Shown here: positions 12,224-18,375 of the stretch, one piece after another | How the letters are laid out: each line of letters begins with the position of its first letter | How positions within the stretch are numbered: the stretch's first letter is position 1 | Assembly: GCA_036517475.1 (NCBI GenBank) | Contig: DATDVZ010000002.1 | Span: 1-45,607, forward strand | Direction of reading: 5' to 3' | Length of the DNA: 45,607 nucleotides | Source of the DNA: Minisyncoccota bacterium | Lineage (GTDB): Bacteria; Patescibacteriota; Minisyncoccia; Phycocordibacterales; Zambryskibacteraceae | Notes under the pieces: generated by a model | Seen by the model: only the letters and a program-made list of their open reading frames with translations | Databases searched by the model: none | Told to the model about the DNA's origin: nothing | Program-made: the position numbers and the translations under genes

Positions 12224-13912
12224 GTGATAGAAGAAATAAAAAAAAGTATAGAGGAAGCTATAAAAAATCTATCTTTATCCCTTTTAGATTTTACGGTCGA
12301 GCATCCGGAAAACGCTGAATTTGGTGATTATTCCAGCAACGTAGCCCTGGTTTGCGCCAAGAATCTCAAGGTTAATCCAATGGATTTAGCCCAAAAAATT
12401 ACAGAAATTCTTCGACAAACTCAGGGCGATTCGATAAATCGAATCGAAATTGCAAAGCCGGGATTTATAAATTTTTTTCTTTCGGAAGATTTCTTAAAGA
12501 ACTCACTTGAGGAAATTTTGGATAAAGGAGAAAACTATGGGAAAAATAAAAATTTAAAAGGGCAAAAAATTATTATTGAATATACGGATGCTAATCCGTT
12601 CAAGGAATTTCATATTGGTCATATTGTTGATAATGCGGTTGGAGAAACAATCTCAAGGATTATTGAATGGAATGGAGCTGAAGTAAGAAGGGCAAATTAT
12701 CAAGGTGATGTGGGATTGCATATTGCCAAGGCTGTTGCAGAAAAGATAAAAAGTAGACGAGAATGGGAAAATGAAAAGGATGTTGCAAGCTCTTACGCTT
12801 CTGGTTCAAAACTTTATGAAGCCGATAAAGAATTTGCCGATTTTGTAATTGAAATAAATAAAAAAATTTATTTAAAAAATGATAAAGAGGTAAATGAAAT
12901 CTATGAACTAGGAAAAAGATTGACATTAGATTATTTTGAGTCGCTTTATAGAATTCTCGGAACAAAGTTTGATTATTATTTTTTTGAATCCACTACAGCC
13001 GAGTTTGGCAAAGCTCTTGTTGCAGAGAACAAAAAAATTTTTGAAGAGAGCGACGGCGCGGTAGTTTACAGGGGCGAAAAAAGAGACCCGAAGCTTCATA
13101 CGCGTGTTTTTATAAACAAAGAAGGTCTGCCAACATATGAAGCCAAAGAGTTAGGCTTGGCAAAAATAAAATATGACACTTATCCCTATGATCTTTCTAT
13201 TGTAATTACAGGAAATGAAATAAAAGATTATTTTAAGGTAATTCTTAGGGTATTGGCTGAGATTTTTCCGGACCTGGCTAAAAAAACCCTTCATTTAAGC
13301 CATGGAATGATGAGATTACCGAGCGGGAAAATGAGCTCTCGTACCGGAGAAGTTATTACTGCGCAATCTTTAATAGACGAAGTAAGGCAAAAGGCATTAA
13401 ATAAAATTTCGGAGGGGAATAGAAATGTTACTGACAAGAATAAATTATCGCAGGATATTGCTGTTGCGGCAATTAAATATTCAATACTGAAACAAGCCAT
13501 CGGAAAAGATATAGTTTTTGATGCTGAAAGTGCCTTGTCATTTGAAGGAGATTCAGGACCTTATTTGCAATATACTTATGCTCGGATCAATTCATTAGTT
13601 GAAAACGGAAGAGAGGTTGGAATCTCTCCAACTGTCTTAACCACTGAGGTCGGCACAGGAGTGGTTGAAAGAATTCTTTACCGTTTTCCTGAGATTGTTG
13701 AGAGAGCTTATGAAGAATTTTCACCTCAATATATTTCAACTTATCTTATAGAAGTGGCCAGTGTTTTTAATAATTTTTATGCAAAAAATTTGATAGTTGA
13801 TGAAAAAGAAAAAATAATTTCTTCTCATCGGCTTGCAATTGCCAAAGCAGTCTCCCTAGTTATTCAAAACGGACTCTATCTTCTAGGAGTTTCTTCTCCT
13901 GAGAAAATGTGA
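12224..13912 (+). CDS. argS: arginine--tRNA ligase
   Basis: N-terminal Arg_tRNA_synt_N-like domain. FHIGHIVDNAVGE is the class-I HIGH region. DALYS-type anticodon-binding C-terminus. GTG start. Confidence 0.9.
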   Translation: MIEEIKKSIEEAIKNLSLSLLDFTVEHPENAEFGDYSSNVALVCAKNLKVNPMDLAQKITEILRQTQGDSINRIEIAKPGFINFFLSEDFLKNSLEEILDKGENYGKNKNLKGQKIIIEYTDANPFKEFHIGHIVDNAVGETISRIIEWNGAEVRRANYQGDVGLHIAKAVAEKIKSRREWENEKDVASSYASGSKLYEADKEFADFVIEINKKIYLKNDKEVNEIYELGKRLTLDYFESLYRILGTKFDYYFFESTTAEFGKALVAENKKIFEESDGAVVYRGEKRDPKLHTRVFINKEGLPTYEAKELGLAKIKYDTYPYDLSIVITGNEIKDYFKVILRVLAEIFPDLAKKTLHLSHGMMRLPSGKMSSRTGEVITAQSLIDEVRQKALNKISEGNRNVTDKNKLSQDIAVAAIKYSILKQAIGKDIVFDAESALSFEGDSGPYLQYTYARINSLVENGREVGISPTVLTTEVGTGVVERILYRFPEIVERAYEEFSPQYISTYLIEVASVFNNFYAKNLIVDEKEKIISSHRLAIAKAVSLVIQNGLYLLGVSSPEKM

Positions 13913-13972
13913 TACGAATGTTACGAATCTGCCGACTGGCAGGCCGAATGATACGAATAAGTTGCAATTTTT

Positions 13973-14359
13973 TTGCAAATACATAACCTATATTTAGATT
14001 GTACACGAGAGGTATATGTGCACTTAAAAATTAAAGGAATTCCATTTCTTGATTTCCCTGTGACAAATGAAACCTTGATACTAGTTAGCAGGGGTATTAA
14101 GAGGCTGTGTATTGATAATGATGTTAAACAGAAAGATTTGGCAGAGCTACTTGGTTACAACTCTGCTTACCTATCTCAATTACTTACTGGATCAAGAGTT
14201 TTTTCATTCAAGCATTTGATAGTAATTGCAGATTTGTTCAGCAAGTCTTTAAGTGAATTGTTTATATATTGTCGTTCACCGCACAGAAGCGACATACATC
14301 TAGAAGGTTTAATAGAGGCAGCTCTGATTTTGGAAGCTTGCCCAGCATTTCAATCGTAA
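13973..14359 (+). CDS. XRE-family helix-turn-helix protein
   Basis: KQKDLAELLGYNSAYLSQLLTGSR is a Cro/C1-type HTH. The true start may lie downstream. Confidence 0.4.
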   Translation: MQIHNLYLDCTREVYVHLKIKGIPFLDFPVTNETLILVSRGIKRLCIDNDVKQKDLAELLGYNSAYLSQLLTGSRVFSFKHLIVIADLFSKSLSELFIYCRSPHRSDIHLEGLIEAALILEACPAFQS

Positions 14360-14453
14360 ACTTGTGGTTTGCGATTTTTTTATTGACAAAATAGGTTGGC
14401 TTAGTAGATTGTTTACGTCCAAGAACCTAACCCCAACAACGGAGTGAAGTCTC

Positions 14454-14603
14454 ATGCTATGGACAATCTTTGTGGTTCTTTTGATTTTTTGGCTATTAGG
14501 GATGGTTTCAGGATATGTTCTTGGAGGATTTATTCACATCCTTCTTTTGGTTGCTCTGGCAGTTGTTCTTATCAGAGTAATTCATGGCAGACGATCTCTT
14601 TGA
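14454..14603 (+). CDS. lmo0937-family small membrane protein (49 aa; absent from ORF track)
   Basis: Manual translation gives MLWTIFVVLLIFWLLGMVSGYVLGGFIHILLLVALAVVLIRVIHGRRSL, the lmo0937-family pattern. GGAG lies 8 nt upstream. Confidence 0.7.
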   Translation: MLWTIFVVLLIFWLLGMVSGYVLGGFIHILLLVALAVVLIRVIHGRRSL

Positions 14604-14657
14604 AATATCGTCGTGCAAAAATCAGCAACTATAAAATTGTTTTTCCGGAGTAGATAA

Positions 14658-14688
14658 CTGCAGACTTGAAGTTTGCGGTTTTTTTTGT
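14658..14688 (+). terminator. intrinsic terminator (8-bp stem incl. 2 G-U, then T8)
   Basis: CTGCAGAC-ttgaa-GTTTGCGG followed by TTTTTTTT. Confidence 0.5.
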
Positions 14689-14747
14689 ATAATAAATTTA
14701 GAAAGACGGATAAGGAGTTCCTCTTTAACTTCCACAAGGAGCTAAAG

Positions 14748-14830
14748 ATGAAAAAAATACTTTCCATTGTTTGCTAATAGCAATTTGGAATCTTGCTTTT
14801 TCAGACGATTCTCCAGGGAATCGTTTTTTA
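14748..14830 (+). promoter_or_regulatory. candidate ileS leader-peptide attenuator (MKKILSIVC mini-ORF + alternative 1:2/2:3/3:4 hairpins + terminator)
   Basis: The 9-codon ORF at 14748-14777 has an SD (GGAGCT) and 2 Ile codons. Segment 1 AGCAA (14779-83) pairs with segment 2 TTGCT (14793-97). GAATC (14788-92) can alternatively pair with GATTC (14807-11). The terminator ACGATTC-tccagg-GAATCGT-TTTTTT spans 14805-14830. Confidence 0.35.
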
Positions 14831-14862
14831 ATTGCAAAAAAAATGCTACGATTATCAAATAA

Positions 14863-17800
14863 ATGGCTAGAAATAGAGTTAACCTACAACCTACAACTTA
14901 CAACAAACAATCCAAGTCTTTACTGGCGCAAAAGGAGGAGGAGATTCTAGATTTCTGGAGACAGAATAAAATTTTCCAAAAATCTCTTGAAAAGCCCTCC
15001 CCAAAGGGAGAATTTGTATTTTATGAGGGTCCTCCAACCGCCAATGGCAAACCGGGGATGCATCACTTTTATCAGCGCGCTTTCAAAGACCTTATTCCGC
15101 GCTTCAAGACAATGCAGGGTTACCATGTCAGAAGAAAAGCGGGCTGGGATACTCACGGTCTTCCAGTTGAGCTTGAGGTTGAAAAAAAACTCGGGATTAA
15201 ATCAAAAAAAGAAATAGAGACTTATGGTATTGCAAAATTTAATGAAGAGTGTAAAAAAAGTGTTTGGACGTATGTTCTAGAGTGGGAGGATTTTTCAAAA
15301 AGGATGGGATTTTGGTTGGACTTTGAAAATCCATATGTAACTTACGAGCCCCAGTATATTGAATCAATATGGAGCATTGTTAAACATATTGATGACAGAG
15401 GACTTTTATATAAAGACTATAAAGTTGTGCCGTGGTGTCCTAGATGCGGCACAGCACTCTCTTCTCATGAACTGGCACAGGGATACGAGGATGTTAAGGA
15501 CGTTTCGGTTTTTGTTAAATTCAAAATAACTAACAACAAACAACCAACAACTAACAACACTTATCTGCTTGCGTGGACAACTACACCTTGGACACTGCCG
15601 GGAAATGTTGCTTTAGCAGTTGGAGAGAACATTGAATATGTAGAAGTAACCAACAACCAACAACTAACAACCAACAATAAAAAAGAACATTTAATATTGG
15701 CAAAAAATAGACTCACTGTTTTTGATAAAGAATACGAGATTGTCAAAGAACTTAAAGGAAGAGATTTAGTTGGTTTGGAGTATGAACCATTGTTTCCATA
15801 TTTGAAAGATAATATTTCCGAGTCACAAAAGGAAAATTTAAAAAATGCTTATAAAGTTTACCCGGCGGATTTTGTTACAACAGAGGAGGGTACCGGTATA
15901 GTTCATACAGCAGTGATGTACGGTCAGGATGATTTTGAATTGGGGACAAAAATTGGCTTACCCAAGCATCACTTAGTTGGGGAAGATGGAAAATTTCTTC
16001 CAAATACAGGCGAAATTTCCGGCAAGTTTGTAAAAGATAAAGAAACCCAAGATTGGATAATAAATGACCTTAAATCAAGAAACTTGTTATTAAAAGAGGA
16101 GCTCTATGAACACTCTTATCCATTCTGTTGGAGATGTAATACGCCTTTAATTTATTACGCAAGGGATTCGTGGTATATAGCCATGTCCAAATTGCGCAAC
16201 AATCTGCTGAAAGAAAATGAAAAAATTAATTGGAATCCGGAATACATTAAAGAAGGCAGGTTCGGTGAATGGTTAAGGGAAGTCAAAGACTGGGCAATCT
16301 CTCGTGAACGTTACTGGGGGACCCCTCTTCCAGTCTGGCAAAATGAAAAGAACGAAAAAATAATTGTTGATTCAATTGAGACACTCAAGAAATATATTCC
16401 AAAATCAGGAAACCGCCACTTTGGAATGCGGCACGGTATCTCTGATCATAATATCTCGTTTACTTGCAGTTCATCAGAAAATTACGCAGATCACGTGACA
16501 GAAAAAGGAATAGGAGAAATTAAAAAGACTGCCCAAATTTTAAAGAGCAAAAATATAACAAAAATTTTTTCCTCTCCTTTTGTCCGTACCAAAGAAACAG
16601 CAGAAATTGTCGCAAAAGAAATCAATTTTCCGGTTGAAAAAATAATTTATGATGACAGAATTCGCGAATACAATTTTGGTGTATTTGATCAGAAATCTCG
16701 TAATTTATATGATGAATGGCGAAAAGAAAACAACAAATTTGACTCAAAACCCGATGGAGGGGAATCTTTCGCTGATGCTAAAAAAAGGGTAGCTGAATTT
16801 TTTTACGACATTGATCATAAACATAAAGATGAAAATATTCTCTTCATTACTCACGGCATTGCATTTGAAGTTCTTCCCTCGATTATTAATGGTTTGTCAG
16901 TAGAAGTTGGCTGGAAGGGTTGGGCACAAAGCGATGTTTTGTATGCAGATTTGAGAGAATATGAGTTTGTCCGACTTCCTCATAATGAAGAATATGAAAT
17001 TGACTTGCATAAACCTTATATTGATGAAATTGTCCTTGTAAAAGATGGTAAAGAATATCAAAGAGTGAAAGAAGTAATGGATGTCTGGTTTGATTCCGGT
17101 TCAATGCCCCTATCTCAGGATCATTATCCCTTCGACTCCTTCGACAATGCTCAGGATAAATCCGCTCAGGGTAAACCTTTTGAAAACACAAAGCTATTAT
17201 ATCCGGCGGATTTTATATGCGAGGGTCTTGATCAAACAAGGGGCTGGTTCTATACACTACATGCGATTGGTAATTTGATGGAAATGGGTCATGCCTATAA
17301 AAACGTTATATGTTTGGGGATACTTTTGGATGAAAAGGGACAAAAGATGTCAAAATCAAAAGGTAATGTCGTTGATCCATGGCAGCAAATGGAAAAATTC
17401 GGGGCTGACCCGCTGCGCTACTGGTTTTATGCTGTTAATCAGCCGGGTGAGTCAAAGGATTTTGATGAAAAATCTATTGATGAAGTCGTAAAGAAAGTTT
17501 TCAATCTTTATTTAAACTCAGTAAAGTTTTATGAGCTTTATGCTGAAAAAAACACCATAAAAATTGGGCGTTCTCACATTCTTGATCGCTGGATTATATC
17601 TTTACTCAATAAACTAATTGAGGAAGTAACGAATGATCTGGAATCGTACAAAGTCTTTGAAGCGGCACGTTCAATTCGAGAATTTATCTCTCAACTCTCC
17701 CAGTGGTATATTCGCCGATCACGTAACCGTTTTAAAGAAGATATCGAAAGAAAGGAAGCGAGCGCGACATTAAGGGAAGTACTTCTTTCACTAGCTGAAA

Positions 17801-18375
17801 TTTTAGCTCCGTTTACGCCGTTTATATCTGAAGATGTTCACCGCCGCCTTAATGGGGAAGGAGAAAGCGTCCACTTGAGAAACTGGCCTGATGTTGGAGA
17901 AATAGATGAAAAAATTATTAATAGTATGGAGAAAACAAGGATGCTCACTTCCTTGGCACTTGAAGCGCGCGCCAAGGCCGGAATTAAAATACGCCAACCT
18001 CTTTTAAAATTAAAAATCAAGGATCAAAAATCAGGATTGCCCAGTGAATTTTTAGAAATAATTAAAGAAGAGGTTAATGTCAAAAATGTTGATTTTGATG
18101 AAACAATACTGGAAGAAATTGAACTTGATACTAAAATAACTGCAGAACTGAAAGAAGAAGGGGATTTAAGGGAAATAATAAGAGCTTTTCAGGAAGCTAG
18201 AAAAGCCAAACTCCTTACCCCTGAGAAGCAAATATCTTCTTCTGTTAATGTTGATGCGAAAACAGCAGAAATAATAGAAAAAAACACCGACGAAATTAAA
18301 AGAAAAGCCAGAATCTCTTTTATTAGCATCAATATCGGCGATGAAGACAGTAAACTTGAAATAAATTTAGAATAG
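14863..18375 (+). CDS. ileS: isoleucine--tRNA ligase (type 2) with inserted histidine-phosphatase-like domain and in-frame heptamer-repeat tracts
   Basis: HIGH-region PPTANGKPGMHHFYQRAF, editing-domain WTTTPWTLP, KMSKSKGN, and a long C-terminal extension. Residues ~515-690 form an extra domain carrying RHG and THG motifs. Confidence 0.95.
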   Translation: MARNRVNLQPTTYNKQSKSLLAQKEEEILDFWRQNKIFQKSLEKPSPKGEFVFYEGPPTANGKPGMHHFYQRAFKDLIPRFKTMQGYHVRRKAGWDTHGLPVELEVEKKLGIKSKKEIETYGIAKFNEECKKSVWTYVLEWEDFSKRMGFWLDFENPYVTYEPQYIESIWSIVKHIDDRGLLYKDYKVVPWCPRCGTALSSHELAQGYEDVKDVSVFVKFKITNNKQPTTNNTYLLAWTTTPWTLPGNVALAVGENIEYVEVTNNQQLTTNNKKEHLILAKNRLTVFDKEYEIVKELKGRDLVGLEYEPLFPYLKDNISESQKENLKNAYKVYPADFVTTEEGTGIVHTAVMYGQDDFELGTKIGLPKHHLVGEDGKFLPNTGEISGKFVKDKETQDWIINDLKSRNLLLKEELYEHSYPFCWRCNTPLIYYARDSWYIAMSKLRNNLLKENEKINWNPEYIKEGRFGEWLREVKDWAISRERYWGTPLPVWQNEKNEKIIVDSIETLKKYIPKSGNRHFGMRHGISDHNISFTCSSSENYADHVTEKGIGEIKKTAQILKSKNITKIFSSPFVRTKETAEIVAKEINFPVEKIIYDDRIREYNFGVFDQKSRNLYDEWRKENNKFDSKPDGGESFADAKKRVAEFFYDIDHKHKDENILFITHGIAFEVLPSIINGLSVEVGWKGWAQSDVLYADLREYEFVRLPHNEEYEIDLHKPYIDEIVLVKDGKEYQRVKEVMDVWFDSGSMPLSQDHYPFDSFDNAQDKSAQGKPFENTKLLYPADFICEGLDQTRGWFYTLHAIGNLMEMGHAYKNVICLGILLDEKGQKMSKSKGNVVDPWQQMEKFGADPLRYWFYAVNQPGESKDFDEKSIDEVVKKVFNLYLNSVKFYELYAEKNTIKIGRSHILDRWIISLLNKLIEEVTNDLESYKVFEAARSIREFISQLSQWYIRRSRNRFKEDIERKEASATLREVLLSLAEILAPFTPFISEDVHRRLNGEGESVHLRNWPDVGEIDEKIINSMEKTRMLTSLALEARAKAGIKIRQPLLKLKIKDQKSGLPSEFLEIIKEEVNVKNVDFDETILEEIELDTKITAELKEEGDLREIIRAFQEARKAKLLTPEKQISSSVNVDAKTAEIIEKNTDEIKRKARISFISINIGDEDSKLEINLE
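14883..14910. repeat. heptamer tandem repeat (CCTACAA)2-CTTACAA-CAAACAA at ileS 5' end
   Basis: Four consecutive 7-mers. The tract is translated as the N-terminal NLQPTTYNKQ. Confidence 0.6.
15528..15560. repeat. heptamer tandem repeat TAACAAC-AAACAAC-CAACAAC-TAACAAC within ileS
   Basis: Translated in-frame as TNNKQPTTNNT, immediately N-terminal to the WTTTPWT editing motif. Confidence 0.65.
15648..15680. repeat. heptamer tandem repeat CAACAAC-CAACAAC-TAACAAC-CAACAAT within ileS
   Basis: Translated in-frame as VTNNQQLTTNNKK, 90 nt downstream of the previous tract. Confidence 0.65.

Follow-up and report, generated by a model that had tools for sequence, protein, structure and literature searches.

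A predicted histidine phosphatase domain inserted into the type-2 isoleucyl-tRNA synthetase of Patescibacteria, and its stand-alone form encoded upstream of ileS

In a stretch of 45,607 nucleotides (nt) from a Minisyncoccota bacterium (Patescibacteriota, Zambryskibacteraceae; assembly GCA_036517475.1, contig DATDVZ010000002.1, positions 1 to 45,607; hereafter the window), the gene ileS for isoleucyl-tRNA synthetase (IleRS) was found to encode a protein that carries in its middle an additional domain of 195 amino acids (aa), which belongs, as judged from its sequence and predicted structure, to the branch-1 histidine phosphatases. The same insertion is present in many uncultivated Patescibacteria, and in others a stand-alone form of the phosphatase is encoded immediately upstream of ileS; this adjoining gene is new here, as is the occurrence of the phosphatase at further sites of synthetases and in tandem copies. 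We favor, with a probability of roughly one half, the reading that an autonomous and catalytically competent phosphatase acts as a dedicated partner of class I synthetases either in cis or in trans.

Few enzymes have been studied as thoroughly as aminoacyl-tRNA synthetases, whose accessory catalytic modules known so far are editing domains that act by hydrolysis. A phosphatase built into IleRS (and also into valyl-tRNA synthetase, ValRS) or adjoining ileS over a large part of a major radiation would indicate that translation in these ultra-small, host-dependent cells has a requirement not recognised so far; should such coupling prove untrue, the proteins would still be a striking example of how one domain can enter essential enzymes repeatedly. 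In the literature searched (full text), no description of an IleRS with a histidine phosphatase was found; the sequences are public under generic names, and the window protein (HEY4489689.1) is called just [quoted passage not shown] at NCBI, as is usual for IleRS of this kind.

Results

An additional domain in an otherwise complete IleRS

As a whole, the 1170-aa product of ileS scored 900 bits with TIGR00392 (ileS; cut-off, 621.4), which places it within this family, and Pfam divided it into tRNA-synt_1 in two parts, His_Phos_1 between them, and then Anticodon_1 (the anticodon-binding domain PF08264, E 7e-31) and DUF5915. The protein is collinear throughout (sequence E 3.4e-227) with the solved IleRS2 of Priestia megaterium (8c8u/8c8v/8c8w), a type-2, eukaryote-like enzyme with GXHH: residues 22–511 and 707–1093 were aligned with residues 11–477 and 480–868 of the 8c8w chain, respectively. 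The insertion therefore comprises aa 512–706, which take the place of approximately two residues of canonical IleRS2. Both enzymes share the HH variant of HIGH (PGMHHFY in the window protein, paired with PGVHHAL of 8c8w, the IleRS2 form), the editing motifs of connective peptide 1 (CP1; WTTTPWTLPGN and GTGIVHTA, intact as read from the translation), KMSKS (aa 828–832, nt 17344–17358), the anticodon domain and DUF5915. Unlike the Priestia enzyme, the window protein has the 195 extra residues in place of those few between 477 and 480 of the chain and is devoid of the four zinc-knuckle cysteines. On its two sides, the insertion is bordered by VWQNEKNEKIIVDSIETLKKYIPK (aa 491–514), and by DLHKPYIDEI (aa 714–723) and DVWFDSGSMP (aa 740–749). 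The open reading frame (ORF) thus encodes an otherwise complete IleRS with intact synthetase motifs, and aminoacylation activity is predicted. No second ileS is present within the 45.6-kb window, and the protein is not a member of the mupirocin-resistance IleRS families MupA and MupB (762 and 754 bits; cut-off, 1900).

The AlphaFold2 (AF2) model of the full-length protein (mean predicted local distance difference test, pLDDT, of 88.6; predicted template-modelling score, pTM, of 0.83) was superposed on IleRS2 8c8v over its IleRS scaffold (Foldseek E 4.6e-87), and both of the insertion junctions were modelled with pLDDT of more than 90. Besides the N-terminal 15 residues, the sole long stretch of low confidence was a loop at aa 760–776 (pLDDT < 50).

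An earlier note on this DNA, made from the letters and their translation, had described a genuine domain insertion of about 170 aa at nt 16400–16930 in a continuous reading frame. This description holds in that the domain is located there, the frame is one ORF (14863–18375, + strand) and all of the motifs quoted in the note are found at their places in the translation; the domain is nonetheless somewhat larger, namely 195 aa at nt 16396–16980, as delimited by the 8c8w alignment. The note had also proposed four checks (alignment to a canonical type-2 IleRS, a profile search, comparison with orthologous contigs, and structure prediction of the full protein), all of which bore the insertion out as described above and below.

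Trivial origins of the insertion were also considered. A normal connective-peptide region of IleRS2 is excluded by the alignment to 8c8w together with the strong match to His_Phos_1. A chimeric assembly or join is excluded as well: the identical 1170-aa protein is encoded on 11 independently assembled contigs, which span samples and assemblers (ENA, JGI 3300002502 and 3300025317, Logan SRR3989344) and have the same neighbouring genes, and the same junctions recur in at least 80 species. An intein was also rejected, with no Hint or intein family of Pfam and no +1 nucleophile in the protein; the earlier note was right in this conclusion but not in stating that HN is missing from the C-terminal junction, where H707–N708 does occur. 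This dipeptide is aligned to the host IleRS and is followed by Glu/Asn instead of Cys/Ser/Thr. The guanine–cytosine (GC) fraction is 0.354 in the insert and 0.377 and 0.369 in its flanks.

In the relatives, the domain is placed at the tip of a hairpin forming a four-cysteine (zinc) knuckle: WGTPLPIWxCxxCG and IGS..EL precede the phosphatase, and LPHN..YELDLHRPYID and LxCxxCG follow it. The insertion in the window protein falls between WGTPLPVW and DLHKPYID, where the four cysteines of the knuckle have been lost. The short hairpin is intact in insertion-free type-2 IleRS of sister lineages (L091, L147), and we take this knuckle to correspond to the second Zn site of Thermus thermophilus IleRS.

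The insert as a branch-1 histidine phosphatase

Pfam His_Phos_1 (PF00300) matched aa 522–685 with 94.7 bits (E 7.6e-27). When the insert was modelled alone with AF2, a PGAM-type α/β fold was obtained (pLDDT 90.2, pTM 0.88), for which the best solved neighbours in Foldseek were the phosphoserine phosphatase of Hydrogenobacter (4IJ6; E 7.8e-14, TM score 0.79), PhoE (1H2E; TM score 0.77), mycobacterial hydrolases and GpgP (4PZ9). The characteristic blocks are FGMRHG (aa 520–525, nt 16420–16437), FSSPFVRTKETAEIV (aa 569–583) and ILFITHG (aa 659–665, nt 16837–16857). The intact RHG…H core of branch-1 enzymes that the earlier note had recognised is hence present with all of R523, H524, R575, E602 and H664, each of which is aligned with a PhoE residue.

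In 74 full-length homologues, R523, H524, R575, E602, E634 and H664 were invariant, and G525 and N530 were conserved in 99% and 96%, respectively. The octapeptide RTKETAEI served as the pattern of the genome scan, so that the invariance of R575 in that set is partly circular; the remaining residues were in no pattern, and R575 was likewise invariant in the set derived from HMMER. We then pooled 330 instances of the domain that the scans of genomes and metagenomes and the HMMER search had yielded. The R-H…R…E…H set was retained almost without exception, second, third and fourth copies included, at pairwise identities down to approximately 27%. The exceptions at E602 were few and conservative (Glu to Asp), and those at H664 were confined to a distant free-standing family (P0003–P0005), which has Ser. 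We also noticed a subset of embedded domains (P0087, P0274, P0275) that lack the variable lid segment (profile positions ~92–125) and keep the catalytic residues.

The insert resembles the small branch-1 phosphatases (PhoE/YhfR, 1EBB and 1H2E; iPSP1/PspA, 4IJ5/4IJ6; CobC; GpgP, Rv2419c) in its fold (TM scores of 0.77–0.80), in its size of approximately 200 aa and in having R-H-G, R, E and H in register, but is only 20–23% identical to them, and these enzymes are free-standing rather than embedded in a synthetase. The “PGAM/SixA-like” assignment in the earlier note was therefore correct as to a histidine phosphatase and not as to SixA, whose model (TIGR00249) gave 29 bits against a cut-off of 74.5 with a match limited to aa 520–590. 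Membership in the cofactor-dependent phosphoglycerate mutases (dPGM; NF038349, NF002339, TIGR01258) was also rejected, with 68.6 bits against 225 for the archaeal dPGM model and 31.7 against 316. In terms of sequence and predicted fold, the insert is thus a branch-1 histidine phosphatase domain of PhoE/PspA/CobC-like type that falls in no characterised subfamily.

Distribution of the insertion

We scanned one genome per GTDB species and examined the best 80 loci. In all of these, the match sits inside a continuous IleRS frame at the same site, with the protein comprising approximately 1070–1390 aa where the contig spans the whole gene. The loci come from metagenome-assembled genomes (MAGs) of Patescibacteria type (Paceibacterota/Parcubacteria, Nomura-, Kaiser-, Taylor- and Wolfebacteria, and Minisyncoccia), together with those under generic labels and one “Bacillota” MAG. 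Furthermore, an exhaustive HMMER search against 1.84 billion representatives was performed; among 156 proteins examined, which are its best 150 representatives and six matches from another search, synthetase flanks were found in 115. The IleRS–phosphatase insertion is a clade-wide feature shared by many uncultivated Patescibacteria.

A 1362-bp contig (L001:1-1362; ENA ERZ23499197, scaffold_42854) encodes the same architecture of IleRS and phosphatase in one frame with 43% identity to the window protein. Eight TGA codons are in frame, seven of which are at conserved Trp positions of the window IleRS; a lineage reading UGA as Trp (similar to code 4) therefore seems to have the insertion, too.

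Stand-alone phosphatase genes upstream of ileS

Of the free-standing homologues, the closest one, P0002 with 196 aa, is encoded between argS, the gene for arginyl-tRNA synthetase (ArgRS), and an insertion-free ileS, only one nucleotide from the ileS start. We then scanned metagenomes with only stand-alone phosphatases as seeds, and the resulting 80 loci were accordingly picked solely by phosphatase similarity. Approximately half of them were embedded in ileS, and the other half were separate ORFs of 190–230 aa. Among 37 stand-alone loci having at least 300 nt downstream, ileS started between a 31-nt overlap with the phosphatase gene and 18 nt past its stop codon in 33. The gene argS was upstream in 33 of the 35 stand-alone loci with upstream sequence, at a more variable distance (5–1117 nt), and was directly upstream in 43 of 64 embedded loci. 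Distant His_Phos_1 genes (P0005, P0007) were not next to ileS. The stand-alone family comprises 1439 clusters at E <= 1e-15 and, where named, is also from Parcubacteria (Nealsonbacteria, Staskawiczbacteria). At least one of its members has been mislabelled in databases; namely, a 195-aa stand-alone phosphatase (P0347) is called “isoleucyl-tRNA synthetase” by JGI.

Downstream of the stand-alone gene, IleRS is either of type i, marked by NPWLDAG, or of type ii, marked by DVWFDSG; proteins of both types exceed the ileS cut-off, and the embedded copies are confined to type ii. We compared three loci: in L091 and L092 the phosphatase is stand-alone, with IleRS of type ii and type i, respectively, and in L096 it is embedded. 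Among these, the phosphatases were 66–71% identical and ArgRS 58–69%, whereas the IleRS cores were only 38–52% identical. Since the identities of the phosphatase and ArgRS are well above that of the IleRS core, the phosphatase tracks the organism, with ileS displaced in place and the link persisting. In a neighbor-joining tree, furthermore, embedded and stand-alone copies were interleaved, which implies more than one transition between the two states.

The distant free-standing family with Ser in place of the second catalytic His (VVTSAG; P0003, P0004, and P0005 at L089:6784-7434) is encoded amid genes for thymidylate synthesis (SHMT, tmk, thyA, dcd/dut, folA), not near ileS.

Other architectures

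The phosphatase family was found at three sites of IleRS and two sites of ValRS and was also fused to ArgRS and TsaC. At the site of the window protein (site 1), tandem copies are present in P0094 and P0139. The loop at aa ~757–782 (site 2) accommodates a second copy in P0078, and a copy at aa ~895–907 ahead of the anticodon domain (site 3) was found in P0080, P0095 and P0116, of which P0080 has sites 2 and 3 occupied without site 1. A fragment of ValRS (P0010, 1161 aa; 411 bits with the valS model NF004349 against 199 with ileS) contains four phosphatase copies at two sites, with all of the catalytic residues intact. ArgRS with a C-terminal phosphatase fusion was found at L133, and fusions of TsaC/YrdC with the phosphatase make up four clusters.

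Another relative (P0085, 1066 aa) is an IleRS equipped with the phosphatase at site 1, a GNAT domain at site 2 and an in-frame REP-associated tyrosine transposase (RAYT, IS200-like). The transposase occupies aa 326–472 in the editing domain at the position of aa 311 of the window protein and was recognised by NF047646 (81.3 bits; cut-off, 80) and Pfam Y1_Tnp. In Patescibacteria, the TsaC/YrdC domain for N6-threonylcarbamoyladenosine (t6A) synthesis (P0118, P0157–P0273) is fused most commonly to an MGMT-type domain (PF01035), and also to TruB, 2H phosphoesterase/CPDase, Nudix, GNAT, purine DNA glycosylase and His_Phos_1.

Discussion

How the phosphatase might work with the synthetase

In the reading that we favor, a PhoE/PspA-like phosphomonoesterase would be set into the tip of the zinc-knuckle hairpin of a functional type-2 IleRS, so that two active sites would reside in one polypeptide. 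In the trans form, the phosphatase gene (hp) would belong to an operon of the order argS-hp-ileS, with its translation coupled to that of ileS; in the cis form, one to four copies of the inserted domain would be accommodated in several permissive loops. From the sequence, the phosphatase is very probably active. That its activity serves the synthetase and not an unrelated pathway is a closer call, which we judge to be slightly on the positive side. We lean toward such coupling because the adjacency to ileS is tight and durable and outlasts the replacement of ileS itself, and because one family has been inserted repeatedly into two essential class I enzymes.

The partner enzymes share ATP-dependent adenylate chemistry with the release of AMP and pyrophosphate (PPi), and three of the four also bind the tRNA acceptor end. 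The likeliest single class of substrate might be phosphomonoesters carried by nucleotides or by the acceptor end of tRNA; for example, a 2′/3′-terminal phosphate could be removed to permit charging. This proposal is tentative, and it is with the same reserve that we would rank such a substrate ahead of PPi and of cis-dephosphorylation of the synthetase; PPi is placed lower because we know of no pyrophosphatase of the PGAM type. In its most specific form, the proposal is that the phosphatase provides class I aminoacyl-tRNA synthetases with an accessory activity so far unrecognised; it would remove phosphate in repair or quality control (for example, of tRNA 3′ ends bearing a 2′/3′-phosphate or pyrophosphate) or in resetting the synthetase, either as a built-in domain or as a separate protein across much of Patescibacteria. 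This we put forward as a still more speculative suggestion.

Synthetase modules with both cis and trans forms are known: the INS domain of ProRS has the counterparts YbaK/ProXp, and the editing domain of AlaRS has the counterpart AlaX. The phosphatase is similar to these modules in that a catalytic module is either inserted or free-standing, in the present case encoded directly upstream, but its fold and chemistry are different; namely, those modules are aminoacyl-ester hydrolases, and the phosphatase would be a phosphomonoesterase. To our knowledge, no error product of IleRS bears a phosphomonoester. As a precedent for an accessory enzyme within IleRS, NCBIfam has the family “ileS_w_GNAT” (NF040702), and accessory enzyme domains inside IleRS have therefore already been recognised, though not this one; P0085 has both the phosphatase and GNAT, whereas the window protein lacks GNAT, scores 341 bits against the cut-off of 1999 and differs in the inserted domain and its site. 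RNase H/acid phosphatase (NF005567, Rv2228c type) is likewise a phosphatase joined to a nucleic-acid enzyme, and its His_Phos_1 part is aligned with the insert at 59 bits; this is nonetheless an end-to-end fusion with another partner enzyme, and the score is below the cut-off of 326. Also, the CCA-adding enzyme of Escherichia coli has an HD domain with phosphatase activity, again a phosphatase joined to an enzyme acting on the tRNA end, but in an end-to-end fusion with a different partner.

Points against coupling, and alternative explanations

Several observations weigh against the favored reading. The phosphatase domain evolves faster than the IleRS core, with mean identities of 40% and 48.5%, respectively. 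None of the curated subfamily models reached its cut-off on the window protein (CobC, TIGR03162, 70.8 bits against 162.9; PspA, NF045917, 56.9 against 350), and the sequence therefore does not predict the substrate. With +2.0 per 100 aa, as compared with +0.4 in the core, the insert is not distinctive in its net charge, which gives no sign of an RNA-binding surface. The argS–ileS synteny could partly explain the neighborhood of the stand-alone phosphatase, although argS is directly upstream in only about two thirds of the embedded loci. Moreover, since TsaC/YrdC joins many unrelated domains, a fusion in Patescibacteria need not imply a shared function; the TsaC–phosphatase fusion, which we had considered as a functional clue (t6A, tRNA-Ile/Arg), is weakened for the same reason.

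These points bear most directly on an alternative that we consider less probable than coupling and yet the most serious of its rivals: the phosphatase may be an ordinary housekeeping or metabolic enzyme, such as a missing phosphoglycerate mutase (PGM), a phosphoserine phosphatase or a nucleotidase, which happens to be encoded in a conserved housekeeping operon, was fused or inserted in streamlined genomes and does no work with IleRS. The functionally mixed fusions of TsaC/YrdC and the faster evolution of the domain speak for this alternative, as does the presence of dcd, thyX, tmk and recO in the neighborhood. The closest folds are furthermore those of small-molecule phosphatases and a short dPGM. 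Jaffe et al. (2020, PMC7304191) report that PGM is apparently absent from several shallow clades of Parcubacteria, where its sequence may have diverged too far. Matches to the PGAM family may distort the reconstruction of glycolysis in Parcubacteria. All of the dPGM models nonetheless scored under their cut-offs, and the motifs are more phosphatase-like than mutase-like, as judged by eye against the dPGM consensus; the stand-alone protein P0002 also remained below the dPGM cut-off (92.8 bits against 225). It is hard to explain neutrally how internal loops in two essential synthetases came to receive the domain repeatedly, at three sites in IleRS and two in ValRS and with up to four copies. Also, the distance to ileS remains narrow, between an overlap of 31 nt and a spacing of 18 nt, even at loci where argS is 250–1100 nt off and at those where the IleRS type differs.

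We regard as improbable another alternative, in which the phosphatase would be a built-in protection that undoes an inhibitory phosphorylation imposed by toxin kinases or pyrophosphokinases on the synthetase or its tRNA 3′ end, or destroys a phosphorylated inhibitor, in analogy to resistance domains against mimics of aminoacyl-adenylates. The phosphatase family includes the protein phosphatases PGAM5, Sts-1 and SixA, HipA-type kinases target class I synthetases, and GNATs are known detoxifiers of aminoacyl-nucleotide antibiotics; the GNAT domain in the same IleRS protein (P0085) and the existence of the “ileS_w_GNAT” family would be consistent with this idea. The distribution is, however, clade-wide and housekeeping-like rather than patchy, the neighborhood has no conserved gene for a toxin or kinase, and the defence models of PADLOC gave no match.

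Even less probable is a non-catalytic role, either as dimerisation or scaffold modules that join IleRS, ValRS, ArgRS and TsaC into a complex reminiscent of multi-synthetase complexes, or as a ligand sensor. Proteins of the PGAM fold commonly dimerise, and the domain, being attached to several enzymes of translation and also arrayed in tandem, is similar to the appended domains of eukaryotic synthetases; a scaffold would not, however, need the full catalytic set, which is strictly kept in essentially every copy, the extra ones included. Finally, an origin as a chimeric assembly, as two genes joined by a frameshift or as a selfish element excised after translation in the manner of an intein, for which the HN dipeptide at the C-terminal junction and the in-frame transposase of P0085 might be quoted, is effectively refuted by the 11 independent contigs with an identical ORF, by the same in-frame junctions across species, and by an insert that has a GC fraction similar to its flanks and neither Hint domain nor +1 nucleophile, with HN aligned to the host IleRS.

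Other features of the window

The features of ileS and its upstream region are collected in Table 1.

Table 1. Positions of ileS, the inserted phosphatase and the upstream genes in the window.
Feature	Position (nt)	Strand	Basis or remark
argS (ArgRS), conserved upstream neighbour	12224..13912	+	ORF, Pfam, synteny; the stand-alone phosphatase gene of relatives lies between argS and ileS
Helix-turn-helix (HTH) protein, 128 aa	13973-14359	+	weak PADLOC HTH matches; located where relatives have the stand-alone phosphatase
ileS, stop codon included	14863..18375	+	single uninterrupted ORF, 1170 aa; type-2 IleRS carrying the insertion
IleRS N-terminal part, aa 1-511	14863..16395	+	first Rossmann half, CP1 editing domain, WGTPLPVW strand; aligns with 8c8w residues 11-477
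Inserted (predicted) histidine phosphatase module, aa 512-706, 195 aa	16396..16980	+	gap in alignment to 8c8w; AF2; Foldseek
Pfam His_Phos_1 (PF00300) match, aa 522-685	16426..16917	+	E 7.6e-27, 94.7 bits; gathering cut-off 21.7
RHG motif: R523, nucleophile H524, G525	16429..16437	+	conservation in homologues
R575, second phosphate-binding Arg, within RTKETAEI	16585..16587	+	invariant in homologues
E602, putative general acid	16666..16668	+	100% in 74 homologues
H664, second catalytic His (THG)	16852..16854	+	100% in 74 homologues
IleRS C-terminal part, aa 707-1170	16981..18372	+	DLHKPYID, DVWFDSGSMP, KMSKS, anticodon-binding domain, DUF5915; aligns with 8c8w residues 480-868 and beyond
Loop aa ~757-782 (DSFDNAQDKSAQGKPFENTKLL), site 2	17131..17208	+	disordered in AF2 model; holds a second phosphatase or GNAT in other lineages

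No relic of a phosphatase gene was found in the spacer between argS and ileS (13900–14870), and the embedded copy is the only one in the window. The 503-nt stretch before ileS (14360–14862) encodes a short hydrophobic ORF (MLWTIFVVLLIFWLLGM...). Neither Rfam families (T-box included) nor tRNA were detected in the window, and no defence system was matched there by PADLOC.

Far downstream, at 41731–44253 on the + strand, we noticed an ORF of 840 aa in which Pfam detected MVP_shoulder (E 4.4e-23) along with a Vault_3 repeat; its product is thus similar to major vault protein. The GC fraction of this stretch is raised to 0.48–0.50, as compared with approximately 0.37 elsewhere, and directly upstream of the vault-like gene is a 277-aa ORF (40537–41370, + strand) with a weak match to PI3_PI4_kinase (E 3.8e-08).

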